The notes: generated by a model not told the origin, from the sequence alone. Shown: positions 12,591-40,669, counted from the stretch's first letter. The stretch: DNA of 59,753 nucleotides from Blastocatellia bacterium (GCA_039648975.1 JBBWZK010000221.1:1-59753), one strand, 5' to 3'. Translations and numbers: made by a program.

Positions 12591-12708
12591 AAACTCCTTA
12601 AATCTACTGCCAAAAAGGAACTGCAGATTGCGGAAACCACAGCATTAATTATACACTGGGCCCGGCTATTTGTAGGAATGAATGGCAAAGTTGATACCTC
12701 AGCCCGCA

Positions 12709-13116
12709 TTATTCCTGTTTAATAAAGAAGAACGCCAGAACTCCTACTATCAGAAATGAACTCCAAGAGGAAATATCATTCAGATAAGTAGAAAGGTCTA
12801 TAATCGTACCTTTCCCCATGTACCCAAAGAGTACCGAATACCACAAGAGCAACAAGTTCCAGCCAACCGACGAAACAAGGGCCACCCAAAACGAGTACGA
12901 CTCTATTTTCTTCGACTTGCTCTTTTTAGCGAAAAAGCCACCCATGATAACGGCAAAATGAACTGAATATATTTTCAGCACCGTTATCATCAACTCGCGC
13001 ATCTCATCGGCATATATGTGGCCTCTATGATAAGAAATAAAGAATGCCGATGCGTGAATCAGATATGATACAAAGAAGACAAGGAACAAGCAGATACGCG
13101 TTGTACCAAGTGTCAT
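12709..13116 (-). CDS. Small multi-pass membrane protein
   Basis: 135 aa with about 4 hydrophobic segments; ATGA overlap with the upstream gene; AT-rich. Confidence 0.7.
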   Translation of the reverse strand: MTLGTTRICLFLVFFVSYLIHASAFFISYHRGHIYADEMRELMITVLKIYSVHFAVIMGGFFAKKSKSKKIESYSFWVALVSSVGWNLLLLWYSVLFGYMGKGTIIDLSTYLNDISSWSSFLIVGVLAFFFIKQE

Positions 13117-22699: not shown

Positions 22700-22805
22700 T
22701 GGGGTAATTCCCGACACTTCCATCCTCTTTTCAGGACTGCCAGTCAATCGCAGAAATTCACTGCTGGTCAGGTGCAAAAGCTGCGCAGCTTTAATTAACG
22801 GGTAG
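22699..22805 (+). pseudogene. Possible remnant of a PIN/DUF3368-type toxin 5' end
   Basis: TGATG coupling, then ATG GGG TAA. Adding one G to the G-run gives MGVIPDTSIL, a PIN-like start, but the similarity ends after about 10 codons. Confidence 0.35.
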
Positions 22806-23930
22806 AACCTTTGGGAAAACATCCCAGGCCCAGCGGCCAACAGGCGCGCCGTGCATATCAAACACCTTTGCTCGATAGCGAAATTGATTGCCGTGCTCAT
22901 CCGTTCGTTTCGATTCTCTGAAATCCAAACTGATTGCCGAGATGCCGAGTTCGGGCAAGGTGTGTAGCTCGCTAGGCTCAGAGATACCGTTATGATTGGT
23001 ATCTTGCCACAATCGTAGTGAGGAGAAGATATCATCTCGGCGATCAATGACGCCATCTCCATTGCCGCCATTGCCGATCAGGTCGTACTCGGCAAGCGCT
23101 TTGAAGCCATTCGTCTCCGGCGATTCCCGTTGCGGCGTGAAATTGCCAAACAACTCCAAGCCACTGTCTATCCGGCCATTGCCGTTACGATCTAAAGCCA
23201 GCCAGGCATTGTCAGAGCCGATTGCGGGCCAGGCAATGCGATAGCGTATCCCATTGCCGGTGGGATCGAAAAGAACGCCGCCTGCGGCATCTGTCAGATC
23301 AAAGCCATTACCGCTCACATCGATCAGAATGGGTGAATAGAAACAGCAACATGGCGGATACGCTATCATCCCACTTGGACAGGTAGCGCCATTCGGTGAA
23401 TAGGAGCAATTCGCGCCGGAAGGGCCGATACAGCCGCCTTGAGCCGTTTGACTTTGGACAGCGATGCTCACGTTGACGGTGGTCGGCATAGTTACGGTAG
23501 CGCCAACCGCACTATCGAGTAAGAACTGGCTGTTGATGATGCCTGTCTTGGTATTCTGGCCATTGGTGGTTATAGTGAAGGAAAAATTCGTCGCGGCTCC
23601 GCCACCAGCGAGCATCTTGGTTTTGGTTCGGCTTGGGGTCACCGTGTAGCCGATTTCACTAAAATTAGAGGCTACAATAAAATCCACCTTAGCACTTGCT
23701 GTTCCGTCCGTCGGCACATCCGCCGAAGTCAATAAACTGATGGTGAACGTGACGGAGTCGTTGGAGGCATAGATGGCAGTCTTACTCTGAGAGGAGTTTC
23801 CCAACTTCACCGTCGCAGCATAAAGGGCCGGCTCAGCGGTGGCCCTCCGGCTTCCTGAGGGAGTCAGCGACAGAGAAAATGGGTTTACCAAGATCAGGCA
23901 ACAAGCGAGGAGAAGAATGCGTGGCAACAT
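22791..23930 (-). CDS. Secreted protein: beta-rich N-domain, 6-Cys mini-domain, FrpC self-processing-module-like Ca2+-binding C-domain (paralog 1)
   Basis: GGAGG RBS; signal peptide; [51 protein letters not shown] align by eye with the FrpC SPM. Confidence 0.85.
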
Positions 23931-24115
23931 ATAGCACCTCCTACCAGCATTTTCCAAGAAGCAAGCAATTATCGAAATGCGGACTCAGAGTTTTGTAAGG
24001 AACGCTTCGCAGGTCAAATTTATACGCCTGAATCAATATGCTGTCAAGGAAAAAATATACAAACCTATACCATGTTTCATTACAAATCTATTTCTATAAC
24101 AATGCCTGTGGATAA

Positions 24116-24151
24116 AAGAGGCAGCGACCCGGTAGCGAGCCGCTGCCCTTT
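24116..24151 (-). terminator. Putative intrinsic terminator of the large modular gene
   Basis: GGCAGCG...CGCTGCC stem just downstream of the 24185 stop; on the minus strand it is followed by TCTTTT. Confidence 0.55.
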
Positions 24152-24184
24152 CATTGCGTCAGTGTTGAGAGCAGCAGACGCAAT

Positions 24185-27100
24185 CTATGAAACAAACGCG
24201 GCGTGCGAAGGGCGCGGCAATGCACTGCGCCGGTGATCGAGAGACGGAATGCGCCAGGCGATGGCGCGGCGTGCCGCCATCGGCATTGCTTCATTCATCG
24301 CCGCACTCAGCACGTCGCTCAAGCAAGCGCGCATCGCACGACACGATGGCGCGAGCCTGTCGGTTGCGCCTGGCTGCACGGCCAGCAACGTTGCGCCGGC
24401 TGACAAGGGCTGCGGCGCGCTGCTCATGGCCAGCGTACCGGTCGTCGCCGCCATCACCGCATTGGCGATGCTGCCGCCCAGAGGAATGAACGACGTGTCG
24501 GCAATCAGCGGATAGCTGACGGCGCGGCTGCTCGTGTAAAAGACCGTGCCGTTCTTGTAATACTTCACGCCGCCGCCTTCGACACTGATGCGGAAAACGT
24601 CGCCGCTGCGGTAAGCCGTCTCGCCCATGTAGACGTTTGCCTCGCGCACTTCGGCGATGCTGTAATCCGTCAGCTTGATCGCGTAATCAATCCCCGCGAA
24701 ATCGGTTCCCACAGGGTTGCGCGCCAGGCCACAGAAGCGCAGCTTGTTGGTCTCCTGCGCGGTAAACTGTAGATAGCCATCGCCCGACGCCAGCGATTGC
24801 TGCGAGCGCGCTCCGGCATCCGCCGAATCGTCGCGCCCGCCGGTCTTCTGCAAAGTGTTGCCGCTGGCGGTGCAGTTGACCACGCTTGTCCAGACCACAT
24901 TCTGAGTCGTGCCGCCGCCACCACCGCCGCCGCCACCACCGCCGCCGCCACTGCCAGCGCCCGGCGTCGTGAACAACATATCGCCCGATATGGTGAGATT
25001 GCCCGCCGCATCGCGCGACCTGACGCGGAAGTGATATGTGATATTCGCCACAAATCCGCTCAAGCTGGCGCTGTGACTTGTCACGCGCGTCGAGTTGAGC
25101 GCCGTGCTGCTGCCGTAACTGGCGGTCGTGCCATAATCGATCTGTGTGTCGCTGGCTTCGTTGGTTGCCCAGTTGATGGTTGCACCCGCCGCTGTGAGAT
25201 TCGCTGCGGCGACCGCGCTGACGACAGGCGGCGTCGTGTCACCCCCACCACCCGAAGGCGGCGGCGGAATCTTGACGATGAAGGCATCGCGGCGCGACGA
25301 CGAACCCCAGTTGCTGGTGAAGACGGCGAACTGGCCGTCGCGGCTGAGGTTGGCGCGCGGCTCGTCCCAGTAGTCGCGAAACACCGAATGGTGATGCGCG
25401 ACGCGGCGAACGCGCTGCGTGCCGTCAGTCGACACCAGAAGCAATTCATTCTTAAACAGGCCAGAGTTGGGCAGCGACGTGGCAACGAACAGGCTCACCA
25501 GCATCCAGCCATCACCATCGTCGAGCAGCGAAACATGACTACCCTGGCTCCAGTCGTTGCCCAGCGACAGGACGTTGAAAAACTGATGCGGGTTGGCAAG
25601 CTGACGCGAGTTGTAGGCGTTGTTCCAGTTGTCGAACCCGATGACCACGCCGTTGCCGCTATCGTGATGCCCCGGCGAAAAGTCCGGCGCACCATCCGTG
25701 ACATTGGCTACAGAACGGGTTTGCAGGTTGATGATCTTGCATTCAATGGCGCTCGCCGTTCCCTGATTGCCGGTCAGGATGGTCAGATACTGGCCGCTCT
25801 TGTCTACCTGCACTTCATCGACTTCGGTCGTCTGCGCGGTGTAGAGATTGTTCTGCGTGCGCTGCCAGCCGAGATAGCCAATGACATTCCAGTTCGCATC
25901 TTTCAGCGTGAAGCCGAAGCCATTGTCGTCAATCGATTTCGACATCTGATATAGGTTTGCGCCGGGCGCCTGGCCTGTGAAGTCCTTAACCAGCGTGTAG
26001 CTGTTCGCGGCGACGTTATAGGAATAAATCTTCATGCCGGAATGGCAGTAGATGATATCCGGGTCATTGCCGCTCCAGGTGACATCATCGTTCCACGGAT
26101 AGCCGCCGCCCGGCAGCACAGCCCTGAACAAGGCGCGCTTGTTCGAGATGCGAAAGTTCACCGGGTCGAAGTCATACAAGGTCGGGTCGCCGTCGCTGAT
26201 GAAAACCATCAGCCGCGTGCTGTTGCGATTGAGGCTCGGCCAGTAGGAATAGCTATTGTAGTTGCTCGTGCCGTCGCGCTCGTCGGTGATGCGCAAAATG
26301 GTAGTCCCGAATACAGGATCAACGATTGTGCCGCCAGCCGCAGGCAAGGCGGGCGGGGCCGGCTCAGCATAGACGTTCTTATCCGTCTTGAGCGGGTCAA
26401 CGCCGCCGCCACCACCGCCGCCACCGCCGCCTGCCGTCGAGGCAGTCATGAAAGTCTGGTCGCCCGACACCAGAAGGTTTCCGGCAGCGTCGCGTGATTT
26501 GACGCGGAAGTGATACATCGCGCCGGCAGCAAGCCCTGCGAGCGTGGCGCTGTGATTGGTCACCATCGACGTTGAAAGTGTCGTGCTGCTGCCGTAGCTG
26601 GCCGACGTGCCGTATTCAAGCTGCGTGTCGCTGCCTTTGTCTGTCGTCCACGTCACGCTTGCGCCGCTGGTCGTCAGGCCGCCGGTCGAAAGCACAGAGA
26701 TGACTGGCTCTGTGCCGCCACCGCCGCCACCGCCACCGCCTGACGCGCCGGTGGCAAAGGTGTAATCGTTCGAGGTGGCGAGATTGCCTGCCGCATCACG
26801 CGACTTGACGCGATAGTGATATGTAGTGCCGGCTACAAGCCCGCTCAGAGCCATGCTGTGGCCTGTCACTCTGGCGCTATTCGCGGCACTCGCGCCATAA
26901 GCGGTCGTCGCGCCATAGTCGACGGTCGAGTCGCTCGCTTCATCAGTCGTCCAGTTTACGGTAGCCGTGCTCGCCGTCACGCCCGAACTGGCGACGGCGC
27001 TGATGACCGGCGGTATCGTATCAGCGCCGGGATTGACAGTGACTGACGCCCTTGCCGTCGCGCGCGGGTCAGCCGCCAGCGTCGCTCTGACCGTATAGGT

Positions 27101-28678
27101 GCCAGCGGTAGCCGGCGCGGTGTAAAGTCCGGTGCTGGTAATCGTGCCGCCGTCTGTCGACCAGTTGATGCCGGCAGCTTTCGCGCCGGTGATGATCGCC
27201 GTAAATTGCAGGCTCTGGCCGGCATTGATCGATGCCTTTACCGGGCTGATGCTGACGATAGCGCTAAAGCCCGCGCCGTAAACCATGACGTTGTTGACGG
27301 CGGCCATCGTGTTGACCAGCGACGCCGTCACCAGCAGCGGGTATACAGGCCGCGCCTGGCTCGTGTAGATCAGTTCGCCATTTTTATAGTAATGGACGGC
27401 TTTTCCCTCGATTGCGATGCGAAAGACGTTGCCGGATTTGTATTTTACCTTACCCTTAACGACGCCGTTCTCGATGAACAATGCCTTGCGGGCGCTGTTG
27501 AGCTTGATGGCAAAGTTGATGTCGTCTGCGGCGGCGTGAATGGCGTTGCTGTTGCTCAAGCCGCAAACCCGCTCTTTGTCTGCATCAATGGCCGTGAACT
27601 CAACATAGGCATCACCTTCGGCGACGGTTTGTAGCGACGTCGCGCTGGCGTCATCCAGATTGTTGTTGCCGGCGGTCTTCTGCACGCTGTTGTCGCGCGC
27701 CGAGCTGTTGATCAGGTTCGTCCATACCAGCGTCGATGCGACCGTCGGCGGCACCGCAGCAATGAAGACATCCTGGCGCGAGCCACCCGCGCCGGCGCTG
27801 TAGAGAGCGAAGCCCCCGTCGCGCGACAGCCTCTCATGCGGCAAGGTGTTTGCCGCTTCACCCGCGACGCTCAACCAATCGCGCGTCGCGCTCTGCGGCG
27901 AAACCTCCGCGTCGGCGGCGGGCGCAAGCTGCACGGCGTCGCTCTGCGACTCGGTCGCAAAGCGCCATGCGCGCGTCGTCGCGCCATTGATGACGAGCGC
28001 CTGACCCGATTGATTAAAGTCGGCATTTGTAAAATTGGCTACACCTGCCGTCGGGTCGTTCAGGTCGAAAGAGTAGACGCTATCGCTCAGGCGATCCCAG
28101 ACGATGACCGCGCGCCACGCACTCGCGCCGGCTTCGCGCCACGCAAAAGCGAAGCGCTGATCGGCAGCCTGTGGCTTGCTCAAGCGGGCGACTTCGCCGC
28201 GCCCTAGATGGCCGGAAAAATCTTTGATCACGTGGCTGCGGCGCGTCACCATATCGTAAGCGGCGAGGCGTATCGCGCCGTCCGCCGTGTCGAGTCCATA
28301 TAGGGTGTCGGCGTCGGCGGCTGACCACTGGAGCGAATCGGCGTCGAGCGATTCGCGGTCAAACAGCGGCCCTTCTTTCAATAGGTTCATGCTCGCCGCA
28401 TCGAAGCGGTAGAGCGTCGCCGCGCCGTCCAGATTGACGACGAAGCGCGTCGCGTCCGCATTAAAACTTGTCGTTGGAATTACATTTGCGGAAAGCGCGT
28501 CACTTTCGTCGGTGACACGCAGAATGCGCCTGTTGTGCAGGGCATCAACATAGATGCTGCCGGCATGCGGCAAGAAGGCGGATGCGGAATCGTCGCGGCG
28601 CGCACGGCTGGCGATAACCGTCTGTTGCACCATCATCAACGCGACGATCATCCAGACGATGAAAGTCTTGAATCTCAT
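24185..28678 (-). CDS. Large secreted modular protein: degenerate propeller, SPRY/ConA-like module, Ig-like, FN3 x2, His-rich propeller, FN3, SPRY/ConA-like module
   Basis: Signal peptide; three DTxPPVIS/VS...WxTDxxSDxxxxYG...YHxRVxSRDAAGN FN3 repeats; poly-Gly linkers; internal duplications and paralogy to 14299-16242. Confidence 0.85.
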   Translation of the reverse strand: MRFKTFIVWMIVALMMVQQTVIASRARRDDSASAFLPHAGSIYVDALHNRRILRVTDESDALSANVIPTTSFNADATRFVVNLDGAATLYRFDAASMNLLKEGPLFDRESLDADSLQWSAADADTLYGLDTADGAIRLAAYDMVTRRSHVIKDFSGHLGRGEVARLSKPQAADQRFAFAWREAGASAWRAVIVWDRLSDSVYSFDLNDPTAGVANFTNADFNQSGQALVINGATTRAWRFATESQSDAVQLAPAADAEVSPQSATRDWLSVAGEAANTLPHERLSRDGGFALYSAGAGGSRQDVFIAAVPPTVASTLVWTNLINSSARDNSVQKTAGNNNLDDASATSLQTVAEGDAYVEFTAIDADKERVCGLSNSNAIHAAADDINFAIKLNSARKALFIENGVVKGKVKYKSGNVFRIAIEGKAVHYYKNGELIYTSQARPVYPLLVTASLVNTMAAVNNVMVYGAGFSAIVSISPVKASINAGQSLQFTAIITGAKAAGINWSTDGGTITSTGLYTAPATAGTYTVRATLAADPRATARASVTVNPGADTIPPVISAVASSGVTASTATVNWTTDEASDSTVDYGATTAYGASAANSARVTGHSMALSGLVAGTTYHYRVKSRDAAGNLATSNDYTFATGASGGGGGGGGGTEPVISVLSTGGLTTSGASVTWTTDKGSDTQLEYGTSASYGSSTTLSTSMVTNHSATLAGLAAGAMYHFRVKSRDAAGNLLVSGDQTFMTASTAGGGGGGGGGGVDPLKTDKNVYAEPAPPALPAAGGTIVDPVFGTTILRITDERDGTSNYNSYSYWPSLNRNSTRLMVFISDGDPTLYDFDPVNFRISNKRALFRAVLPGGGYPWNDDVTWSGNDPDIIYCHSGMKIYSYNVAANSYTLVKDFTGQAPGANLYQMSKSIDDNGFGFTLKDANWNVIGYLGWQRTQNNLYTAQTTEVDEVQVDKSGQYLTILTGNQGTASAIECKIINLQTRSVANVTDGAPDFSPGHHDSGNGVVIGFDNWNNAYNSRQLANPHQFFNVLSLGNDWSQGSHVSLLDDGDGWMLVSLFVATSLPNSGLFKNELLLVSTDGTQRVRRVAHHHSVFRDYWDEPRANLSRDGQFAVFTSNWGSSSRRDAFIVKIPPPPSGGGGDTTPPVVSAVAAANLTAAGATINWATNEASDTQIDYGTTASYGSSTALNSTRVTSHSASLSGFVANITYHFRVRSRDAAGNLTISGDMLFTTPGAGSGGGGGGGGGGGGGTTQNVVWTSVVNCTASGNTLQKTGGRDDSADAGARSQQSLASGDGYLQFTAQETNKLRFCGLARNPVGTDFAGIDYAIKLTDYSIAEVREANVYMGETAYRSGDVFRISVEGGGVKYYKNGTVFYTSSRAVSYPLIADTSFIPLGGSIANAVMAATTGTLAMSSAPQPLSAGATLLAVQPGATDRLAPSCRAMRACLSDVLSAAMNEAMPMAARRAIAWRIPSLDHRRSALPRPSHAAFVS

Positions 28679-29167
28679 GCTTAACCTCACTCTTCACTTG
28701 TGACTGATTGCCGGATTGAGGGCCGCAACAGTGACGCAAATCTGCGTTTCGGTCTCGTGAGGGGCGAGACGGTTGAAGCGCGCCGACCAGTCGCGCCGCT
28801 TGCGCGAGCGCTTGGCCGCTTCTGGCGCAGACCCGTTTATCGCTTCAGGGTTCGCGCCAAGTGTGCGCGAACCGCCGTCGATAGACCTGGTGAAGCCGCT
28901 TGCGGCTTGCTTGAAACGCAGCCTGTCGTGAGGTTCAGTAATGACGGTGAATGTTGTGGAGTCGTTCTGTTGTTCATCTCATGCCTCATCTTGATCGCTT
29001 GCCTGTTGTGGCATGGAGCTGCTTGATGCAGCCTCTCGTTGCCGTCAACGTTGCGATTTGGGATACGCCACGACCACAGTCGTGGCAAAACGCAATCGGG
29101 GACTGCCTGTGAAGATGGAGTGAGATGAGCCACAGGGAGGGTGCATCTCACTTCGGCAGCCAGACAT

Positions 29168-29257
29168 CCTTTGCGATTTTGGATTTTAGAGTTTGGATTA
29201 GAGGGCGCATTGCGCTGATTCTCTTAATCCAAAATCGGCAATCCAAAATCGCAAAGG
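29168..29257. repeat. Inverted repeat built from TTTGGAT-type heptamers
   Basis: Perfect 18-bp arms CCTTTGCGATTTTGGATT (29168-29185) and AATCCAAAATCGCAAAGG (29240-29257). Confidence 0.8.
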
Positions 29258-29829
29258 CCATGGCTTTGCGACCCGGAATCACTTCCGGTGTGCCTTTATC
29301 GGTGAAACGACCGCGCTGCCTCTTACGAGCCGGCGCGGATTTTGGCGGGATTGGTTACAGTTTGGGAAACCGATTGCCATCACGATTCCAAAGTCGAACA
29401 GTGATGCTGATCACAAACTGCGCCAGTCCCACGCCGTCAAAGAACGATAGATTGGTCGCTTATCAACCGTTGCGCGCCTTCACGAAAATTGCGGATGATG
29501 CGGACAAGGTGATACGGGGCCAACCGCGCCGAATAGTGAGCAATCAGCGTTCCACCTGAATGGGGACTCTCGCCTATATAGAGGAATGCGGTGGCGCAAG
29601 TCTTGGCGGCCAGTCTGAATTTTTTTCATAGCGGCCCAGCGCCAGGCGTGTAAATTATGCAGGCTTGGCGGACGGGCTCCTGTAGAACCAGGCGGCCACT
29701 GGCATGACGTTTTTCAAGGCTGCGCCTCTTCTTCACGCCAGCGTAATCTGTTCTAGAAAATACCCGGCATTCGACATTTTCTTACTTTGAATCGTTCTGC
29801 ACGACGCGGTCAGCGGATTCGAGGAGGAG

Positions 29830-31083
29830 ATGAAATCAGCCATCGCCATCGCAACGCACAAAGACAACGCGACTGCGCTGCCCGTGCCCGTCGAAAACGC
29901 CAAGCGCGATACGGCCTGGCCGGTTCTGGCAAGAGACAAGGTTTCGGTTGTCAGCATCAGCGATTTCGCGTTGCTCGATAGCGTTACCGATAAGTGGGAA
30001 GACCTCGCGGCGCAAGCCATCGAGCCGAATCCGTTTTATGAACACTGGATGCTGCGGCCCGCGCTCGCGCATCTCGGCGCGGGCGCTGACCTGCGCGTCG
30101 TGCTGATCTTTGCCCCCAACCGCGCGCGCCCCACCGAGCCGCTGCTGTGCGGCGTTTTTCCGCTTGAGCGCCGCCCTCGGCACAAAGGGATACCGTGCCG
30201 CACGCTCAGCCTGTGGCGGCACAAGTTCTGCCAACTGGCGACGCCGCTCGTTCGCGCCTCGCACGCGCAGGAGACGATGGAAGCCTTCTTCGCATGGCTG
30301 GCCGCCGCCGACCACGGCTGCACCTTGATGGAGTTCAACCGCGTCAGCGGCGAAGGCGCGTTCCATCACCTGTTCGTCGATCATCTTGATCACAACGCCG
30401 TGTTGCATGCCGCCGGCGATTGCTTTGCGCGGGCGATCTTTCGCCCGGCGAGCGACGCTGAGACTTACCTGCGCACGGTGCTATCGACTAAACATCGCAA
30501 AGCGCGGCGGCGGCATGAACAGCAACTTGCCGCAAGCGGCGCGGTCGAATACGTCGCGCTTGAAGCGGGTGGCGATGTGCAGGGCTGGCTCGAAGAATTT
30601 ATCGCCCTCGAAGCGAGCGGCTGGAAGGGGCGCGAGCGTAGCGCGCTGGCGTCGTCAGCCGCCGACCAGCAATTTTTTGTAAGCGCCGCTACAGAAGCAT
30701 TCCGGCGCGACCGCTTCGAGATGCTGGCCTTGCGCCACAATGGGCGAATGATCGCGGCGCGCTGCGGCTTTGCGGCGGCCCCCGGCGCGTACACCTTCAA
30801 GATTGCCTATGACGAAAGTTACGCCCAGTGGTCGCCGGGCGTGCTGCTTGAGATTGAGAACATCCGCCGCCTGCACGGCGATCCGCAGATTCGCTGGATG
30901 GACTCGTTCACCTCGCGCGATAACGCGATGTTCAATCGCTTATGGCGGGATCGCCTGCTGCTGCGCGACGTGACGGTCGGCACGGGCAGCCGTCGCGCTG
31001 ATCTGATCATCTCGCTGCTGCCGTTGTTGCGATGGCTCAAGCGCCGCACGACACGCGCCGCGCATGCGCCGCAGGAATACTGA
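29830..31083 (+). CDS. GNAT/Fem-fold protein, CelD/BcsL (Acetyltransf_6)-like, #1
   Basis: GAGGAG RBS; EPNPFYEHWML, RKARRRHEQQL, EASGWKG, FKIAYDESYAQWSPGVLL. Confidence 0.85.
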   Translation: MKSAIAIATHKDNATALPVPVENAKRDTAWPVLARDKVSVVSISDFALLDSVTDKWEDLAAQAIEPNPFYEHWMLRPALAHLGAGADLRVVLIFAPNRARPTEPLLCGVFPLERRPRHKGIPCRTLSLWRHKFCQLATPLVRASHAQETMEAFFAWLAAADHGCTLMEFNRVSGEGAFHHLFVDHLDHNAVLHAAGDCFARAIFRPASDAETYLRTVLSTKHRKARRRHEQQLAASGAVEYVALEAGGDVQGWLEEFIALEASGWKGRERSALASSAADQQFFVSAATEAFRRDRFEMLALRHNGRMIAARCGFAAAPGAYTFKIAYDESYAQWSPGVLLEIENIRRLHGDPQIRWMDSFTSRDNAMFNRLWRDRLLLRDVTVGTGSRRADLIISLLPLLRWLKRRTTRAAHAPQEY

Positions 31084-31100
31084 TCAATCGTTCGAGTGTT

Positions 31101-32414
31101 ATGATGAATTCCACGCCAACTGTCAAATCAGCCGCTGCGGCAATGCCGGGCCAGCCTCGCATCAACGACGCGATGATTAGCGAACACCATCACACCACCT
31201 CGCAGCCCCGCGTCGTTTTGCCGCATCAGCGCAGGATGTACGCGGTTGCCGTAGAAGACCCGGCGGAGCTTGAACCATATGCGAGCGATTGGGACGCGCT
31301 CGCCGAATCGCTTATCGAGCCGAATCCTTTTTACGAACGCTGGATGCTTGAGCCGGCGCTTGCGCCGTTCGGCAAAGACAGGCGCTTGATCTTCGTCTTC
31401 ATCTTCGCAGCAGACACCTTGGAGCCATCCGCGCGGCCCGTGCTCTGCGGCTTATTTCCGCTCGATGTGAGCAAACGCTATGACGGCATGGGCAAGCCTC
31501 TGCCGCTTAAAACCATCGGCATGTGGAAGCACAAATACTGTTATCTCTGCACGCCGCTGATGCGCGATGAGGGCGCGGCTGAAACTCTCGACGCCTTCTT
31601 CGCGTGGCTTGACGGCTACGGCCACGGCGCGGCGCTGATGGATTTTCGTTATGTTGCCGAAGGGCCGTTTTACCGCGCGCTCGCAGATTATCTAGACCGC
31701 GCGCAGCGTCCGCATTATCTGGCGCAATCGTTCACGCGGGCGCTGCTACGCGGGCGCGACGATGCGCCGGGCTACCTGCGCGAAGCGCTGTCGCGGGAGC
31801 ATCGCAAAGACCTGCGGCGCAAAGAGCGGCGGCTGGCCGAGACCGGTAAGCTTGAATACGCCGCGATGGATGCAGCGAGCGACCCGCGCGCCTGGATTGC
31901 TGAATATACGGAAGTCGAAAAGATCAGTTGGAAAGGCAAGCAGGGCGTCGCGTTGTTGAGCACGCCGGGCGAGCGCGAATTCTTCGAGACCATCGCGCTG
32001 GAAGCCTTCGCGCGTGGTCGCTTGATGATGCTGACTTTGCGCTCGGAAGGCCGCGCCATTGCCTGCAAGTGCAACTTCATCGCCGGGCGCGGCGCGTATG
32101 CTTTCAAGATCGCTTATGACGATGAATATGCGCCGTCATCGCCGGGCATTCTGCTGGAAATAGAAAACATTCGCCGCCTGCATGCGAGCGCGGCACTGGA
32201 TTGGATGGACTCGTGCGCTGATCCGAGCAACGCCATGATCAATCGCCTGTGGCTCGACCGTTTGCCTGTGCAGAGCATCGCCGTCAGCGCTGCTCGGCGC
32301 GGCCAGTTGGCTGTGGCGCTGATGCCTTTGTTGAAGTGGTTCAACCGCCAGGTATTTCGCCGCGACCTGGCGCGCCGCAAACGCGCCGGCGACATTCAGA
32401 TGATCGATAGGTGA
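31101..32414 (+). CDS. GNAT/Fem-fold protein, CelD/BcsL-like, #2 (tandem paralog of #1)
   Basis: EPNPFYERWML, RKDLRRKERRL, EKISWKG, FKIAYDDEYAPSSPGILLEIENIRRLH. Start codon uncertain. Confidence 0.85.
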   Translation: MMNSTPTVKSAAAAMPGQPRINDAMISEHHHTTSQPRVVLPHQRRMYAVAVEDPAELEPYASDWDALAESLIEPNPFYERWMLEPALAPFGKDRRLIFVFIFAADTLEPSARPVLCGLFPLDVSKRYDGMGKPLPLKTIGMWKHKYCYLCTPLMRDEGAAETLDAFFAWLDGYGHGAALMDFRYVAEGPFYRALADYLDRAQRPHYLAQSFTRALLRGRDDAPGYLREALSREHRKDLRRKERRLAETGKLEYAAMDAASDPRAWIAEYTEVEKISWKGKQGVALLSTPGEREFFETIALEAFARGRLMMLTLRSEGRAIACKCNFIAGRGAYAFKIAYDDEYAPSSPGILLEIENIRRLHASAALDWMDSCADPSNAMINRLWLDRLPVQSIAVSAARRGQLAVALMPLLKWFNRQVFRRDLARRKRAGDIQMIDR

Positions 32415-32481
32415 GTGAAGTTTCCATGTAGAGGTGGCCCTGCGGTGGTCGCCCCTATCTGAAAACAGCGGGTTAAGTGTT

Positions 32482-33396
32482 ATGGCATCAAGCAGCGTTT
32501 TACGAATGAATGAATCGCGTTTTGCTGAAGGTTCGAGCAAGCCTTCGCCGCGACGGCTCGAAATCAACTCCGACGAATTTCGCGCCGGCTTCAATCGACA
32601 GCCGTTTCCCATCGGCCATCATCTCGCCGGTCATCCGCTATTCGAGTTGCCGCGCTTGCTTGAGCTGGCGGCGCGTCTGCCCGAAGCGTGCGTCGCCTAC
32701 AACGCCGGCGACATCTCGGTCGCCGAAGGCTTGTATCGTGGGCCGCGCAATGGTCTGTCCGTCGAAGAGACCATCCGCCGCATCGAAGACTGCCAGTCGT
32801 GGATGGTCTTGAAGCATGTCGAAGCCGATGCCGAATACAACGCGCTGCTCGATAGTTGTCTCGACGAAGTGCAAGCCTTATCGGAGCCGTTAGCGCCGGG
32901 CATGCGCAAGCGTGAAGGCTTCATCTTCATCAGCTCGCCGCGTTCGGTGACGCCTTATCATCTGGACCCTGAGTATAATTTTCTCTTGCAGATTCGCGGC
33001 AGCAAGACGGTGCATATTTGGAATCCCCATGATCCTGCGGTGCTCACGGACGAAGAGCTTGAAGATTTCTTCACCTCGGAAGAGCAGAAGAATTTGAAGT
33101 TCAAAGACGACTACGAGCAGAAGGCTTCTGTATACGAGCTGACGCCGGGACGCGGCTTGCATTTTCCGGTGACCTCGCCGCACTGGGTGCAGAACGGCGA
33201 CGGCGTGTCGGTGTCATTCAGCATTACCTTTCAAACGCCGGCGAGCGAACGCCGCGCCGTGGTTTACGGCGTCAACGCGGCCTTGCGCCGTCGCGGCTTT
33301 AAGCCGACGCCGGCTGGCCGTTCGGCCATACTGGATACGATGAAATACAACGCCTGGCGCGTCGCACGTCGCGTGAAACGAGCAATGGGCAGTTAG
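32482..33396 (+). CDS. JmjC/cupin-like Fe(II)/2OG oxygenase
   Basis: TPYHLDPEYNFLLQIRGSK (HxD) and PHWVQN (distal His) form the facial triad. Confidence 0.85.
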   Translation: MASSSVLRMNESRFAEGSSKPSPRRLEINSDEFRAGFNRQPFPIGHHLAGHPLFELPRLLELAARLPEACVAYNAGDISVAEGLYRGPRNGLSVEETIRRIEDCQSWMVLKHVEADAEYNALLDSCLDEVQALSEPLAPGMRKREGFIFISSPRSVTPYHLDPEYNFLLQIRGSKTVHIWNPHDPAVLTDEELEDFFTSEEQKNLKFKDDYEQKASVYELTPGRGLHFPVTSPHWVQNGDGVSVSFSITFQTPASERRAVVYGVNAALRRRGFKPTPAGRSAILDTMKYNAWRVARRVKRAMGS

Positions 33397-33725
33397 AACA
33401 AGGTTAGAATGCCAACCCTCTCATCTTCAGCTAAAGATTGAACAGCCTCATAGTTTGACCGCAATATGAATTCTATATCGCCTGTCGTGCAGTTGCCTCG
33501 CCGTATCCATATCACTTTCGGAGGGAATCCCAACATCACATTTAAATCGCTGAAATCGGCGTCTCTAGTCACAATGATGAATTCATTGTCACGCGCATAC
33601 TGCCAGATCACCGGATCAGTAGAGGTATCCAGTCCGATCAAATAAACGTGGTTTGAGTCTGGATAAAGATCGATAAGGCGACGGATAAGACGTGGCGACA
33701 GATTCTGATCGAATAGTAATTTCAA
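33393..33725 (-). CDS. DUF5615-family PIN-like toxin
   Basis: MKLLFDQNLS...D..IWQYA...IIVTRDADF...PPKVIWIR. Confidence 0.88.
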   Translation of the reverse strand: MKLLFDQNLSPRLIRRLIDLYPDSNHVYLIGLDTSTDPVIWQYARDNEFIIVTRDADFSDLNVMLGFPPKVIWIRRGNCTTGDIEFILRSNYEAVQSLAEDERVGILTLF

Positions 33726-33946
33726 ACCTCAATCACCATCTGTTGATGTTCACGGTCAGCAGCATAGCTGAGGCAGGCAAGAATATCTTCTCTAGTGAGG
33801 TAGGGAAAATCATCAAGAACCTCTTGCTCACTCATGCCAGCAGCAAGATAAGACAGCACGTCATAGACGGTGATTCGCATCCCTCTGATGCAAGGCTTGC
33901 CGCCGCGCTTACCAGGCTCAATCGTGATTCGGTCTTTGTAGCTCAT
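33722..33946 (-). CDS. DUF433-family antitoxin
   Basis: RITIEPGKRGGKPCIRGMRITV...EVLDDFPYLTREDILACLSYAA; ATGA overlap with the toxin gene. Confidence 0.9.
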   Translation of the reverse strand: MSYKDRITIEPGKRGGKPCIRGMRITVYDVLSYLAAGMSEQEVLDDFPYLTREDILACLSYAADREHQQMVIEV

Positions 33947-33990
33947 ACCCGGATATTAGCACAGCGGTATATCGTTGAGCAGTCCAATTC

Positions 33991-35046
33991 TCATTCGCTC
34001 ACGGGCTGCACAAAGACGGTTTCGAGGTCTTGATCGGCTTCCGTCAGGTGCCAGGAACTCGCCGCTCGCAGGGTGCTTGCCTGCGCGTCCCGGTCGGCTA
34101 CGGCGACTTGAAAGCCGCGCTCGTCGCGGGCGATGAAGCCGTGCCTGAGCAGTCGCCGCGCCATCGCGCAGCCTTCCGTCATGCATAGTTCCAATCGCGC
34201 GCAGCCCCAGGCGGTGGCGTATTCGATCACCAGCCGCAACAGCGCGTCAATCAAGCGCGCGTCGTTCGCGCTGAAGATGTCCATGATGGCCGCTTCGTGG
34301 CCAGACTTTTCAAGCGTAATGAATCCTACCAACTCGCCATCGCGCCGCATGGCCAGGGCTTTCTGGTTGCCGCTGCGGTAACGCCACGCCAGATACCGAC
34401 GGTCGCGCACGCCAGCCACCGGATGCGTTGGCGTCGCCGTAGCGAACAAGGCATCGAATTCGTCGCCGAACTCGAAGACTTCGCTGACCGTGAAACCGCG
34501 CGCGTCGCTCTTCGTCAGCCGATCCAAGACCAGAATCGGCAGGCCGGCGAGCCGCGCCTCGAACTTCGTCGGCACACGCGAAAAGGCCGCTTGATACGCG
34601 CCCTGACTGGTCAGCGGGCGCACCCAGCGGCGATAGCTGGTCACCAGATGCGAGCCGGCTTTGACCAGCGCGCCCAGGTTGTTCGGCGTCGGCGGGCCAT
34701 ACATGAACTCGATGCCGGCCTCGCACATGCCTGCGAAACTGGCAACGTGCAGTTGGGTCGCCAAGCCCCTGCGCCGCACACGCGGTTCGATGTAACAATC
34801 ACCGCCGATGCTCCCCAGGCGTTCGCGCCCGCCGACCATCACGCGGCGCGGAAAGATCGATGTGCAGCCGACCGCCTCACCGCTATTGCTTTCAATCGCC
34901 AGCCACGTCAGCGCACCGCCATGCGGGTTGTCGCGATAAAGCCAGTCGTAACGCGCCGCGACATCGCCGGCATAAACGTTTTTCATTAACCGGATGACAT
35001 GCGCCCGGTCATCATAGGTTGCTTTACGAATCTCGAATTCACTCAT
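33991..35046 (-). CDS. Two-domain GNAT-family N-acyltransferase, #3
   Basis: YDWLYRDNP, DCYIEPRVRRRGLA (acyl-CoA motif A), FMYGPP, RYLAWRY. Confidence 0.8.
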   Translation of the reverse strand: MSEFEIRKATYDDRAHVIRLMKNVYAGDVAARYDWLYRDNPHGGALTWLAIESNSGEAVGCTSIFPRRVMVGGRERLGSIGGDCYIEPRVRRRGLATQLHVASFAGMCEAGIEFMYGPPTPNNLGALVKAGSHLVTSYRRWVRPLTSQGAYQAAFSRVPTKFEARLAGLPILVLDRLTKSDARGFTVSEVFEFGDEFDALFATATPTHPVAGVRDRRYLAWRYRSGNQKALAMRRDGELVGFITLEKSGHEAAIMDIFSANDARLIDALLRLVIEYATAWGCARLELCMTEGCAMARRLLRHGFIARDERGFQVAVADRDAQASTLRAASSWHLTEADQDLETVFVQPVSE

Positions 35047-35089
35047 AGCAGTTCACATTTTCCGCGCTCGAAGGCACGGCATTTTTGGG

Positions 35090-36310
35090 TTAGCGGAAGA
35101 AGTGGCGGCGCTGCAATAAACGGTGTCCGGCCATGCGCACCGCCGTCGGCAGAGTCGCCCTGAGCAGCGATTTGCTCAATCGGGTCATGCGATGAATGCC
35201 TGTGTAGGTCAGCCCCCGCACACCGGAGCGCAAACAGGTAAGCGTCGCCATTTCGCGAACGTCTTGCGTCCACGCGTCTTTATACGCATTGTCGCCGCCC
35301 ATAAAATTGAACTCGCGCACGCCGTCATCGGCGACGCAATCTTTAATGCACAGGCCGAGCATCACGCGCCCTATGCTCAAGCGCGCCAGCCTGGGGTCGA
35401 AGCCTGCCTGAAAGTAATGAACAATACCGTTGTCGTAAAAGCCAATGATTGCCGCCGCGACTTCCCCTTTAACCTCTAGTGTCCACATGCGCAGGCGTTG
35501 GTCGCGCAGACTCATGCGCGCCGCGTTTCGCAAGAAGCCTTCAAAGCCGTGGATAGTAAACGAGCCCGGCTCGCCTCTGGCGTTCCAGCGCGCCTGATGC
35601 AGACGAACGAGCGCGTCCATTGCGGTTTCCAGATCATCCGGCGTCTGGACGCGGCGAAACTCGCAAGCATGCGAGTTGAACAAGCGGCGCGTTTCGTAGA
35701 GCAGGTTCTTGCGCATCGAGCGGCTCAGGTTGGCCAGCACACTCTGCCAATTCCCAAGGGTGCTGATGAAGTGCGCGCGGTTCGCCTGCTGGAGGTTGGC
35801 GCGATTGCCGAGTGCCGCGCACAGGTGCGGCAGGACAACGGATGACGCAGGAATTTCGTTGAGGCACAGCCTGTCCCAGGCGCTTGATTGGCTGAGCAAA
35901 CCGGCAACTGCCTCGGCGACCTGAGCTTCATCACCGCGCCGCGCCAGCAGGTCTAGACATTCGCCTGTATGCACATAAACGCCCGTGCCGATAAACATCA
36001 ACTCGCGCACGTGTGGGATGCCTGCCGTGCGACGCGCGCGCAAATAAAGCGGCGCAAGTCCCGCGAGCCGTCCGCTGCCGTCGCGCGCCGTGATGATGAA
36101 TAACTGCGCGCCCGGCGGGCGGAACGTCTCCCACCAGAGGTGATTCCAGCCTGAGCGCAAAAAGTAAACCTGCTGCACGCTCTCGTCGAGCAACTCGTCC
36201 CATTCGCGGGCGAGCCGAGCAAACCCGGCGTCATCGGTTATGACTTCCGTGTGTAGCAGCGATAACCGTGTTGCGACCGCACTACTCATCAACGGGGCAA
36301 TTCCTTTCAT
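35090..36310 (-). CDS. GNAT/Fem-fold protein, CelD/BcsL-like, #4
   Basis: LAREWDELL, LAGLAPLY, MRKNLLYETRRL, LVRLHQARW, YFQAGFDP, FNFMGGDNAYK. Start uncertain (36289-36349). Confidence 0.85.
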   Translation of the reverse strand: MKGIAPLMSSAVATRLSLLHTEVITDDAGFARLAREWDELLDESVQQVYFLRSGWNHLWWETFRPPGAQLFIITARDGSGRLAGLAPLYLRARRTAGIPHVRELMFIGTGVYVHTGECLDLLARRGDEAQVAEAVAGLLSQSSAWDRLCLNEIPASSVVLPHLCAALGNRANLQQANRAHFISTLGNWQSVLANLSRSMRKNLLYETRRLFNSHACEFRRVQTPDDLETAMDALVRLHQARWNARGEPGSFTIHGFEGFLRNAARMSLRDQRLRMWTLEVKGEVAAAIIGFYDNGIVHYFQAGFDPRLARLSIGRVMLGLCIKDCVADDGVREFNFMGGDNAYKDAWTQDVREMATLTCLRSGVRGLTYTGIHRMTRLSKSLLRATLPTAVRMAGHRLLQRRHFFR

Positions 36311-36557
36311 GCCGCGAACTGACTGCCAGCCTTCGCCATACGTCCACACGCGAAGGCTTACTCAAGTGAAATTGCCTGCCGCCGCCAATTTCCACATCGG
36401 GCCGAAGATAATTTGCACAGCGCTTGCCGACAGCGAATTTCGGGGCGCAGTCAACCGATTGCTTTTAGGCAGCGCTTCTACTAGGCTTTTTCAGTTAGGC
36501 TTTTCAGTGGATGGCTAAACGACTCTCCCTTGTCGCTTGATTTATAAGAAGGGCGTA

Positions 36558-38193
36558 GTGAGCACCAGAGTTTTTCAGTTTGCTGCGTTGCTGATATTCG
36601 CAGTCTTATTCTTCGCGTTTCAATCAACCGCCAGGGTTAGCCTTGCGGGCTCGCCAGATCTCCAGTACGTCGGCAATCGCGCCTGTGCAGCTTGTCACCT
36701 GTCCATCTATCAAAGTTATTCCAGGACACCGATGGCATTGACCAGCGGCCCCGCCGGCAACAACCTTGTCGAAGGCTCATTTGAACACAGCCTTTCGGCA
36801 ATGCGTTATCGTGTGTACTCCAAAGACGGCAAAGCATTGCTAAGCTATCAACGCACGGACGGGCCGCCGATTCGCGGTATACAAGAGTTGCAATTTTTCG
36901 TCGGATCGGGGCGCAGGGGTCGCAGTTATCTATTCAGCGCTGATCATTTTCTCTATCAGTCGCCAGCCAGTTACTATGCGCAAAAGAAACGCTGGGATAT
37001 GTCGCCCGGCTACGAATCATCCCGTGAGATGCCCTTCAATCGTGCGATAGAGTCGAGTTGTCTGGCCTGTCATGCCAGTCAGATACGCGCCATCAGCGGC
37101 ACCGAAAATCGCTATGAGGCAGTGCCTTTCGCTCAGGATGGCATTGGCTGCGAACGCTGTCATGGGCAGCGAGCACAACAAAGGCAAGTCGCCGATGATC
37201 AATCCGGCCAAACTCGACGCGGCGCGGCGCGATTCGGTATGTGCGCAATGTCACCTGTCAGGCGAGGCGCGCATTAACCAGCCGGGCAAGAACGCCGGCA
37301 TGTTTCGACCCGGCGAACTGCTCGCCGATTATGTTCTGGATTACATTTATGAAGGCGATTTTAATTATGCCTATAAAGCAATCGGCCACGTCGAAGCGAT
37401 GGCCAGTAGCCGCTGTAAGCTTCAATCCGGCGACCGTATGTCTTGCCTGAGTTGTCACGATCCGCATACCGTCCCGCCCGCCGAAGAGAAGGCGGCTTAT
37501 TTTCGTGAGAAGTGTCTGGCGTGCCATCTGCAACAGAAAGTTTCGGTCGAGCTCAAGCAACATTTCGATAATCGCTATGACTGTCGTAGCTGTCATATGC
37601 CAGCCACGCCCGGCCTGAGCATTGGCCATACGATGCTGACGGATCATCGCATCTTGCGTAAGCCAATCACAGGCGGATCAGGCCAAAAGCCTGCGACCCG
37701 TTTGATACAATTCGGCGCAAAGCTGGCTGATAGACGCGGGCTGGGATTGGCTTATGCCGAACTCGCGGCACGCGACAACCAGCCGTTCTACGCCGCTGAA
37801 GCCCTGCGCCTTTTGACCGAAGCCTTGCCTTCGTGCGCCAAAGACGCCGAGGTGCTGACCCGTTTAGCCTACCTGCACCAGACGAAAGGCGAAACGGAAC
37901 AGGCCGCCGCACTATATGAAAGGGCCTTGCAGAGCGACCCTCATAAAACTGCGGCGCAGGTTAATCTCGGCGTGCTGTATGCACAGCGCGGGCGCGTTGA
38001 TCGCGCCATCGAGCTATGGCGCAACGCCCTGGCCAGCAATCCTGGCTTGAGTGAGGCGAGTATCAATCTTGCCATCGCGCTTACAGCCGAAGACGATAAG
38101 CCGGAAGCGCGCGATGTGCTGGTCAAAGCGTTGCGCTTCGATCCTGATTCAAGCGTTGAACTAAAGTTATTGCACGACCTGGGCGATCAGTGA
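36558..38193 (+). pseudogene. Multiheme cytochrome c (7 CxxCH) with C-terminal TPRs, frameshifted near 37167
   Basis: The first ORF has CAACH, CLACH, CERCH; the second has CAQCH, CLSCH, CLACH, CRSCH and TPR repeats. The frame switches at CATGGGCAGCGAGCAC. Confidence 0.8.
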
Positions 38194-38271
38194 ACCACTG
38201 CTTATGTAGCCAAAACTAACAAAGCGGCCCCGATTGGAGCCGCCTCTTTGTCAGTTAATGATTCAAAGGAA

Positions 38272-39405
38272 CTATTGCGCGACTAAGAAGACATCCCAGG
38301 CCCAGCGGTCAACCTGTGCGTTACGAGAATCAAAGACTCTAGCCCGGTACTTAAACTGATTGCCGTACTGATCTGTACGCCTCGATTCTCGATAATCGAG
38401 ATCAATTGCATAAACGTTTAATGATGGCAGGGTATGTAACTCATTCATCTCTGAAATGCCGTTGTGGTTGGTATCCTGCCATAGCCGCAAGCTGGAGAAG
38501 ATGGAATCACGAGGCCCTATCCTTCCGTCACCATTGCCACCATTTTCGGGTTTGTCATATTCAGCCAGAGCAATAAAGCCATTACGATTTTCAGATTGCG
38601 GTTGTTGGGTAAAGTTGCCAAACAACTCCAGGCCACTATCAATCGTTCCATTACCGTTGCGGTCGAGTGCCAGCCACGCATCATCTGAACTAGCAGTTGT
38701 CCAGGCAACAGAAAATAGAGTGCCTGTGCCTGCCGGATCAAAACGCACCCCCGCAGTTGCATTCGTGAAGCTAAAGCCATCGCCATTGATGTCTATGATA
38801 ATCGGTGAGTAAAAACAACAGCACGGCGGATATGAAATCGTCCCTGAAGGACAAGTGATGCCGTTTGAAGAATAAAAACAGTTGGCCCCGCTTGGCCCAA
38901 AACAGCTCGTACCGCCTCCGCCAATAGGGCAAGTCCCATAAGATGATGCTATCTGGGAACCGCTATTTTGACAAAAATTCCAAGAGGTAACACCAGGGTC
39001 GCAAATAAGAAGGCTAGTAGTTATTTGATAAGTTACTGTTTGTACCCAACTCGTTGAAGTGACTACGGGAGTATTAAACATTGGCCAGCATTTCGTAGTC
39101 GCCGTAGAGTAATCGCTGCACCTAAACGAACAACCAAACTGGCCATCATTCCAATTTCCCAGAGCAACGTCTTCACTCTTATTTGCCCAAGTGATGGTCT
39201 TAACCTCGCTTTTTTCTATAGAACACATACCGCCAAAGGAATGACATGGATCACATAAATCGCAAACCGAAGTTGATAGGACCTCTCCTGGACATCCTGT
39301 CCTATAAACAGTACCGTCAGGATCACAATGACCTGCATGAGCCATCGGAATCTGTGATAGTAATAGGCCTATCAATATCCACAAGCAGAGTAGTTCTTTT
39401 TTCAT
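38272..39405 (-). CDS. Secreted Cys-rich protein with 6-Cys mini-domain and FrpC SPM-like C-domain (paralog 2)
   Basis: Signal peptide; 18 Cys in the mature N-terminal half; [43 protein letters not shown]. Confidence 0.85.
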
Positions 39406-39430
39406 GGTTATTACTCTTTTAGGGATTTTG

Positions 39431-40198
39431 TTATTGAGTACGTTTTAAAGACTTTAGGATTGCCAGATTTTCTTTTTCGTACTTGTTTACAATATATGAT
39501 AGTACTTGACGAGCAACATCCTCTCCCTTTTCCTGTTCAATTTGTTCAAGTTGTTTGAGTTTATCAAGAGCCAATTCTCTTGCATTATGAAGTCCTACAC
39601 GGAACTCCAACGACCTCCCTTCTTCTTCTTCTGGAAGCTGTTCGAGCTTAAGCTTAATCGCTTCTTGTTTTTGCATTAATCTCATATTTTTCGGGGTGAC
39701 TAATGCATCACGAAAGAGGGGCAGAATGCGTGCTATTTGTGCTTGTGTTCCTGCGCGAGTATCAAATATTTGTCTGACGAACTTAGATTCGCCATCCGAT
39801 GTTCCATCTTCATAAACAACTGCTAGAATGGTAATTCCTTTTTCAGGGCTTGTAGGTGACGGTAAACCACATTGTTCTATTCCCGTGGCCCCAGGAGCTA
39901 TTACTTTTTCAGTATCAATCCACTCGGATCTATAGTTAACTTCTGAAGAAGACAAGGAAATTGCTGTTATGGCCTTGTCCGAATCATTCCTTAATAATAG
40001 AAGAACATTATATTTCTGTACTTTCACATCAACGATGGTTAAATTCGGGACTAAGCTTATTACAGGGAAATTAACTTGCTTCTTAGAAGGGCTCGCTTTG
40101 AAGATGCCAAGTTTAGAAGACGACAAGAATATGAATAGACAAACACAAGAAAAAACCAGGAAATAAGGTTTCTGAGCGATTGCTTTGATTTTCTTCAT
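39431..40198 (-). CDS. Membrane-anchored/exported hypothetical protein, upstream partner of paralog 2
   Basis: AGGAG RBS before ATG40198; N-terminal hydrophobic helix; beta-rich then helical domain; 25-bp gap to the downstream gene; AT-rich. Confidence 0.75.
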
Positions 40199-40669
40199 AA
40201 GAACTTCTCCTGAATAACAATACGCGCAGTAGAGTCCCATTCGCAGTATGAGGAAGAGCTGGAACAACGCGTTTATATCACCGTTAAAAACTTGGGGCAA
40301 GAAAATTTGATGTAGCATATAACATTTTTTTGTTAGGTTATTCTCTTATCCGTACATTGCAAGCAGACATGATAAAAGCTTTCCAAAATGAAGGGCTTAT
40401 GTTTTAGTGATATTGCACACCGCATATTGGACAGCTAGACCTACTCTGCCTGGTCTTCTGCCGTATCTGCTGATCGCACTCGTGGCAGGCGCTGGGCTCA
40501 GGCAAGCCTCACAAGCACGTTCAGATAGGATATGGTTTAACAGTAAAGGCATCTTCCTTGACGATGGGGCGCTCGAACTCTAAACTGAAATTCACAGGCA
40601 AAACGTAGTAAAACTGATAACCAGACCGCGCATACAGACGCGCCAACCACACGGATGATTGAAAAAACT

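Follow-up and report, generated by a model that had tools for sequence, protein, structure and literature searches.

A contig of a Blastocatellia bacterium (GCA_039648975.1, JBBWZK010000221.1; 59,753 nucleotides, the whole of which is called the window here) encodes two proteins that end in a domain related to the SPM (self-processing module) in FrpC from Neisseria, and in both of them the aspartate required for cleavage of FrpC is replaced by serine. The locus thus raises the question of whether such a module can still process itself. The SPM is among the very few modules that make ordinary residues into a reactive electrophile on the addition of Ca2+. It is in use as a protein-ligation tool, NeissLock (PMC7846742, PMC12538545), and the literature views it as an Asp-Pro device restricted to large RTX (repeats-in-toxin) proteins from Gram-negative pathogens, the fold having been called novel and the module exclusive to RTX proteins (PMC7078468). 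Here we describe the two window genes, gene 1 (protein P0001) and gene 2 (protein P0002), and the family to which they belong, and we argue that a hydroxyl or thiol probably takes over the part of the missing aspartate.

Both C-terminal domains are SPM homologues by sequence and by fold, as a preliminary description made from the DNA had proposed. A phmmer search against all PDB chains matched only the FrpC SPM entries 6sjw and 6sjx (E-values to 6sjw_A of 2.1e-25 for P0001 and 6.3e-25 for P0002), and a 21-member family profile matched 6sjw with an E-value of 7.5e-34 over chain residues 1-149. The AlphaFold2 model of the C-terminal domain, built from a 111-sequence alignment with a predicted local distance difference test score (pLDDT) above 90, was matched by Foldseek to 6sjw with an E-value of 2.3e-12, a probability of 1.0 and a template modelling (TM) score of 0.77 over 184 columns; no fold in the PDB except the SPM came below 1e-3. 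All comparisons with FrpC rest on such PDB-search matches, the queries being family members and never the FrpC sequence. The public protein collection carries the PF26745 "SPM" tag on these proteins; the Pfam family covers them, and the homology itself is therefore already catalogued. Our own Pfam-A and NCBIfam searches of both proteins returned nothing beyond a sub-threshold EF-hand_5 match, the Pfam release used predating PF26745, and Pfam gave no RTX or HemolysinCabind match for either.

With about 35% sequence identity to the FrpC SPM, the family domain has the same fold, the invariant opening Pro, four EF-hand-like loops, a stacked Trp pair and an invariant Asp in the last strand. Across the 111 sequences, the Ca2+-loop residues (D213, D256-x-N-x-N-G...E268, D292...D308, D319-x-N-x-N-G...E330) and the pair W243 and W317 (W451/W519 of FrpC) are invariant or nearly so; the Trp pair is thus kept, and retention of the four EF-hand-like sites for Ca2+ is predicted; the same degree of invariance is seen at L269, G271 and D379. 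The last of these lies in the invariant terminal-strand motif WAWDVF, which the HMMER alignments to 6sjw stop short of, and is probably the equivalent of FrpC D579. The domain differs from the FrpC SPM by a 5-residue insertion in loop 3 and, above all, at two acidic positions. Since Pro1 of 6sjw (P415 of FrpC) aligns with P209 of P0001 and P201 of P0002, the Asp414 position is occupied by Ser in both, as the preliminary description had it; the Asp is likewise absent, with Ser in its place, from all 11 paralogues of the genome, and relatives have Thr or Cys there. The position of FrpC D478 (272) is Asn, in the motif ELFGN, in 107 of the 111 sequences. A transient fifth Ca2+ site proposed for FrpC would be formed by Asp414, Asp478 and Asp579 (PMC7078468).

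These replacements bring in the main rival to self-processing, and a serious one, namely that the domain is a non-cleaving SPM derivative that remains joined to a Sec-exported cargo and serves it as a Ca2+-dependent folding switch, a stabiliser or a surface or matrix anchor. The residue before the proline would then owe its retention solely to binding Ca2+ or to forming a turn of the Asx/ST type. We regard this as a genuine possibility, though not the probable one. It accords with the loss of Asp414, which is required in FrpC (PMC7846742), with Asn in the place of D478, with the retention of the four Ca2+ loops and the Trp pair, and with a conservation so high that a binding or anchoring module would fit it well. 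What can be said on the other side comes mainly from the residues that the family admits before the proline.

That residue was surveyed at several depths. Among 234 close homologues it is Ser in 189, Thr in 41, Cys in 3 and Asp in 1; 71 independent genome loci have Ser (55) or Thr (16); and 119 proteins around a divergent Thermoanaerobaculia member have Ser (57), Cys (19), Asp (19), Thr (14) or Glu (10). The close-homologue and Thermoanaerobaculia sets, which represent two Acidobacteriota neighbourhoods, together give 381 domains, with Ser in 269, Thr in 60, Cys in 22, Asp in 20, Glu in 10 and nothing else. Cys makes up 6% of the whole, and in the Thermoanaerobaculia set its share is 16%. Neither Asn nor Gln is seen, and Ala and Gly never occur, although a single mutation separates the latter two from codons for Ser and Thr. 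What the position allows corresponds exactly to the residues whose side chain offers a nucleophilic oxygen or sulphur. The proline is kept in 380 of the 381 domains, the exception being P0012, which has Ser-Leu. A related case is P0213, with two tandem SPM modules, the first having Ser-Pro and the second Ser-Leu-Ala instead while retaining ELFGD. All 20 amino acids occur two residues before the proline, a position that also proved variable by experiment in FrpC (PMC7846742).

On a tree built from the domain minus the junction residue, the junction changed state at least 66 times, every change falling within Ser, Thr, Cys, Asp and Glu. Ser is encoded by TCN in 57 cases and by AGY in 22, and Pro by all four codons; both Ser codon classes are thus used, and a move between TCN and AGY needs passage via Thr or Cys. 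Members with Asp/Glu-Pro and with Ser/Thr/Cys-Pro have one architecture, that of small proteins with a C-terminal SPM, and one Asp/Glu-Pro member clearly has a signal peptide. The Asp-Pro protein P0195, with a carbohydrate-binding module (CBM)/ricin cargo, falls within a group of Ser/Thr-Pro sequences that share about 66% identity with it. The residue at position 272 varies together with that at the junction: Asn stands there in 270 of the 328 members with Ser/Thr, as against 2 of the 30 with Asp/Glu, counts that are uncorrected for shared ancestry. P0195 (ELFSE) had hinted at a strict rule by which Asp at the junction goes with an acidic residue at 272; this was rejected, as the Thermoanaerobaculia Asp/Glu members mostly have Ile or Val there, and all that holds is the weaker association of Asn with Ser/Thr.

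Experiments on FrpC give these constraints a meaning. The D414A mutation abolishes cleavage (PMC7846742), and the P415A precursor still folds, its structure having been solved as PDB 6SJX (PMC7078468); both positions therefore matter for cleavage rather than for folding, and both are tightly constrained in this family. A domain that only folds or anchors is hard to reconcile with a proline that is dispensable for folding in FrpC and yet kept almost without exception. Although Ser, Thr, Asp and Glu are all able to give Ca2+ an oxygen or to cap a turn, Cys is a poor Ca2+ ligand, whereas Asn and Gln are good ones and Asn is the classic Asx-turn residue; the presence of Cys and the absence of Asn and Gln therefore argue against a pure ligand or turn-former role. 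The failure of Ala and Gly to appear over so many changes of state speaks against it too, as does the architecture common to all members, the Asp/Glu-Pro proteins being expected to be capable of cleavage. The preliminary description had put forward two options for the module, a folding or anchoring unit and a processing chemistry of a new kind. Overall, the survey of the junction residue favours a role as nucleophile, as far as a pattern of residues can indicate one.

Because the position admits nucleophiles only, the proline is invariant and Asp and Glu interchange in the same scaffold, we consider that the module most likely still self-processes via a hydroxyl or thiol nucleophile, and put the probability of this at roughly 0.55. 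A variable cargo would be exported by the Sec route, joined via an X-Pro junction to the C-terminal SPM homologue; in a Ca2+-containing compartment after export, the module would fold round its Ca2+ sites and strain the junction, as FrpC does; the side chain before the proline (a hydroxyl here, a thiol or carboxylate in relatives) would act as nucleophile, and the module would detach itself from the cargo. With Ser, Thr or Cys at this place, the aspartic anhydride of FrpC is impossible as an intermediate. Instead, the preceding bond could undergo an N-to-O/S acyl shift, giving an ester or thioester as the intermediate, or the side chain could attack the carbonyl of its own residue, giving a beta-(thio)lactone. 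The cargo would then be released or transferred to a nearby nucleophile, and a membrane-anchored partner, such as the one predicted upstream of gene 2, may serve as the cognate cargo binder, in the capacity of anchor, chaperone or immunity protein.

Inteins, Hedgehog, SEA and GPS domains and the precursors of Ntn hydrolases and pyruvoyl enzymes all undergo cis-autoproteolysis via an N-to-O/S acyl shift of Ser, Thr or Cys. The family domain resembles these modules in having the same nucleophilic residues at a bond that is here presumed to be strained, with the other flanking residue free, and is unlike them in that there is no sequence or fold relationship and that Ca2+ triggering is specific to the SPM. 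Acyl-shift modules, in addition, break the bond on the N-terminal side of the nucleophile; the bond that the SPM strains lies on its C-terminal side.

Several points weigh against self-processing. An N-to-O shift acts on a bond other than the one strained in FrpC, and the four-membered lactone is chemically demanding. With Asn in the place of D478, the fifth Ca2+ site, to which the twisting of the scissile amide has been ascribed, would, from the alignment, be altered. Ser, Thr, Asp and Glu double as oxygen ligands or turn-formers, so the junction pattern is suggestive and not proof. The unusually high conservation of the domain (65-70% identity alongside unrelated cargos) could reflect a binding or sorting role. 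In our literature searches, neither a D414S test nor any SPM with Ser, Thr or Cys ahead of the proline came to light. Gene 1 and its orthologues, moreover, have no partner gene, and their neighbours are AraC-type helix-turn-helix (HTH) and TIR-domain genes.

A bolder version of the self-processing reading is that Ser/Thr/Cys-Pro SPMs form a second class of Ca2+-triggered self-processing modules, in which a reactive acyl species would, besides detaching the module, covalently ligate the cargo to the matched partner, the envelope or a target. Folding outside the cytoplasm would strain the junction, and the hydroxyl or thiol would make a beta-(thio)lactone or (thio)ester at the cargo C-terminus. 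We hold this doubtful, but if true it would amount to natural clip-and-link without an aspartic anhydride across thousands of Acidobacteriota proteins. Any activity of the module would mean a new self-processing chemistry and new inducible ligation tags, and it would give the secreted proteins concerned, a large and unstudied set from an abundant soil phylum, a route to maturation or attachment. If it is inactive, a self-cleaving module would have been domesticated into a Ca2+-dependent folding domain.

The two genes and their parts are listed in Table 1. ORF (open reading frame) calling and translation placed both genes, and both pairs of Ser-Pro codons, exactly where the preliminary description had them; it had overlooked their location on the minus strand and the matched partner gene upstream. 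Gene 1 starts at an ATG, its orthologues P0004 and P0007 beginning at the same Met, and the frame stays open up to a TTG at 23957. BLASTP aligns P0001 and P0002 over one gapless block, residues 176-381 and 168-373 respectively, with 145 of 206 residues identical (70%; E-value 6e-109), and finds no further alignment elsewhere. The earlier claims of a shared C-terminal domain and unrelated N-termini are thus borne out, while the length of about 180 aa falls short of the 206-aa block, which opens with a six-Cys mini-domain closing in PPCCCFYS right before the proline; this mini-domain is found again in many homologues. The genes have 65% nucleotide identity, and 84 of the 145 conserved residues differ in codon; they are old paralogues, and a recent duplication is excluded. 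The contrast drawn between a Cys-free, beta-rich N-terminus and a 12-Cys one agrees with our counts and with the predicted beta-sandwich of gene 1: past the signal peptide and up to the mini-domain, P0001 has no Cys (residues 31-166, ATG-start numbering), and P0002 has 12. Both N-termini have the look of Sec-type signal peptides when inspected by eye, again as described. A location in AT-richer patches proved true of gene 2, which together with its upstream partner (38272-40318) has a G+C content (GC) of 0.39-0.46, clearly low against the window mean of 0.57 (standard deviation, SD, 0.05), and not of gene 1, whose GC of 0.528 is less than 1 SD under that mean. A Foldseek search of the gene 1 model against the PDB gave nothing significant outside the SPM part.

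Table 1. Coordinates of the two genes, their domains and the gene 2 partner in the window.
Feature	Coordinates	Strand	Description	Evidence
Gene 1 (P0001)	22791..23930	minus	379 aa from ATG; putative signal peptide, Cys-free beta-sandwich cargo, six-Cys mini-domain and C-terminal SPM	ORF, translation, AlphaFold2 model
Gene 1 cargo	23433..23822	minus	predicted beta-sandwich, no Cys; no Pfam match	AlphaFold2 strands in residues 56-168, pLDDT 60-79
Gene 1 six-Cys mini-domain	23334..23432	minus	C-x7-C-x8-C-x9-CCC-F-Y-S, the last residue being the junction Ser	inside the 206-aa shared block; pLDDT 83-93
Gene 1 junction Ser208-Pro209	23331..23336	minus	corresponds to FrpC Asp414-Pro415	HMMER alignment to 6sjw_A begins at P209 = Pro1
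Gene 1 SPM-fold domain	22794..23333	minus	residues 209-388; four EF-hand-like Ca2+ loops (predicted), W243/W317 pair, invariant D379	
Gene 2 (P0002)	38272..39405	minus	377 aa; putative signal peptide, 12-Cys cargo, six-Cys mini-domain and C-terminal SPM	
Gene 2 cargo	38905..39333	minus	12 Cys, no Pfam match; related to paralogue cargos on contigs C12 and C170	
Gene 2 junction Ser200-Pro201	38803..38808	minus		HMMER alignment to 6sjw_A begins at P201
Gene 2 SPM-fold domain	38275..38805	minus	residues 201-377; 70% identity to gene 1	
Gene 2 partner	39431..40198	minus	255 aa, 25 nt upstream of gene 2, same strand, GC 0.39	conserved neighbour

The source genome (6.9 Mb in 486 contigs, 85% complete) holds 11 full paralogues and one fragment. 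All 11 are Ser-Pro proteins, and their cargos are unrelated and mostly Cys-rich, one having a HETGH metalloprotease motif; Pfam matched no family in nine paralogue cargo domains, both window cargos included. A search of 1.84 billion representative proteins gave 22,324 matches at an E-value of at most 1e-3 and 3,564 at 1e-30 or below. Among the top 150, the module is 63-72% identical and the N-termini are diverse, the exceptions being an orthologue at 88% and a two-module protein at 44%; the module is C-terminal in nearly all of them. The median distance between the proline and the protein end is 178 aa. The cargo is therefore swappable, as the preliminary description had suggested, with unrelated N-termini in the genome's paralogues and in thousands of proteins elsewhere, and not one N-terminus shared by all. 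Cargos with HExxH protease motifs, lectins and beta-propellers are seen in some of the relatives. Tiny cargos were also considered as a sign of a leader-like role, an idea that was dropped, as the shortest members, which have no signal peptide, look like gene calls that were cut short.

Out of at least 593 genome loci, the best 80 come almost entirely from Blastocatellia, Pyrinomonadaceae or unclassified Acidobacteriota metagenome-assembled genomes, one contig among them being labelled Saccharimonadales. The module is present in 31 of 251 Acidobacteriota genomes spread across the phylum, with up to 13 copies in some Blastocatellia and divergent single copies in other classes. The family is thus very large, multi-copy and acidobacterial, and densest in Blastocatellia and Pyrinomonadaceae.

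Such a strictly C-terminal, highly conserved domain on many unrelated cargos, multi-copy and as patchily distributed as an accessory system would be, could also be a sorting or recognition domain, comparable to type IX secretion C-terminal domains or to sortase and exosortase signals, with a separate enzyme or outer-membrane machine cutting the Ser/Thr/Cys-Pro junction and perhaps attaching the cargo to the envelope. We think this improbable. An all-against-all comparison of the neighbours of the 11 own-genome loci yielded no conserved protease, transporter or sortase-like gene; the domain is homologous to an autocatalytic module, and FrpC needs no enzyme; and the sites of signal-type peptidases usually tolerate Ala and Gly, both of which are missing from the junction.

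To judge from the predicted proteins, the setting of the module is architecturally new: a Sec-type N-terminus, a C-terminal position, no RTX repeats, a swappable cargo and often a matched partner. In FrpC, the SPM is internal to an RTX protein that exceeds 1,000 aa and leaves the cell by type I secretion, whereas here it stands at the extreme C-terminus of multi-copy proteins of 300-700 aa with signal-peptide-like N-termini. Our literature searches (on PF26745, on SPM in Acidobacteria and on recent clip-and-link work) gave no SPM without Asp-Pro or outside RTX proteins. The picture of the SPM changes accordingly in three respects: the fold is far commoner as the C-terminal tail of small, putatively Sec-exported proteins of soil Acidobacteriota, its "catalytic" position there takes exactly the potential nucleophiles, and it occurs in swappable cassettes of cargo and partner.

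The partner of gene 2 belongs to a family that adjoins 4 of the 11 own-genome loci and has 26 homologues; a second partner family precedes two more paralogues. Its AlphaFold2 model (pLDDT 86) predicts a transmembrane (TM) helix, an Ig-like beta-sandwich and a helical bundle. An upstream ORF on the same strand is found at 57 of 77 loci, with a median gap of 29 nt and a median length of 256 aa. Partner similarity follows cargo similarity with an odds ratio of 19, computed on pairs that are non-independent and uncorrected for shared ancestry. Three of the four largest partner clusters are remotely homologous (hhalign probability 95-97%), and one is unrelated. Pfam matched no family in partner families A and B. 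Apart from the variable partner, the genes that recur beside the own-genome loci are of two kinds only, AraC-type (HTH) and TPR, these being also all that Pfam identified among the recurring neighbours. The Ig-like sandwich of the partner (motif ...N.S.K.I... / F.DGT..G; own genome, loci L013-L092) occurs either as part of a separate upstream gene or as the N-terminal domain of the SPM protein, being fused there in C244, P0035 and P0095, for example. These two forms appear to constitute a gene-fusion link between partner and cargo.

The arrangement recalls the frpDC operon, in which FrpD, a lipoprotein encoded upstream, binds FrpC in the N-terminal part that precedes the SPM (PMC5233953). A small, predicted envelope-anchored protein is likewise encoded directly upstream of gene 2, and the type of partner co-varies with the cargo N-terminal to the module; binding is supposed here by analogy. 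The partner with its anchor, sandwich and bundle is unlike FrpD, there are many partner families, and gene 1 has none. Homology of the partner to FrpD was ruled out, the best PDB match in Foldseek being FlaF, an Ig-like protein, with an E-value of 4e-3 and no FrpD among the top 50.

Polymorphic toxin/immunity cassettes likewise combine a conserved module and highly variable domains with a matched, adjacent small gene. The SPM cassettes share with them these traits as well as the multi-copy state, AT-rich islets, a patchy distribution and recombination scars such as the C310 fragment described below. They differ in that the conserved part is C-terminal and the variable part N-terminal, and in that the partner lies upstream; Pfam identified no toxin domain among the window cargos.

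Minor observations concern the surroundings of individual family members. TIR-domain genes adjoin gene 1 orthologues on two unrelated metagenome contigs (L114:6789-7607 and L115:3648-4742); one of these TIR genes is fused to pentapeptide repeats, and L114 has an HTH-only AraC-type gene directly upstream. On contig C310 of the source genome (22258-22404), the final ~26-49 residues of an SPM domain form the end of a 121-aa AraC-type HTH ORF, in what resembles a scar of recombination between a regulator gene and the conserved 3' end of a cassette. A frameshift or an assembly error divides a paralogue on contig C451 (27538-29242) into two ORFs that overlap (27538-28431 and 28325-29242); intact single-ORF counterparts with the same N-terminal sandwich module are P0046 and P0055.

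The window itself contains a second AT-rich islet at 11676-13853 on the minus strand (GC about 0.41 against 0.57), with three co-oriented genes for a 304-aa trypsin-like serine protease (GNSGGPVY), a 135-aa protein with multiple TM segments and a 246-aa protein with a signal-peptide-like N-terminus. Directly downstream of gene 2, on the opposite (plus) strand at 36537-38193, two overlapping ORFs contain motifs of multihaem cytochromes c, and the second also has TPR repeats; the two could be one frameshifted gene.

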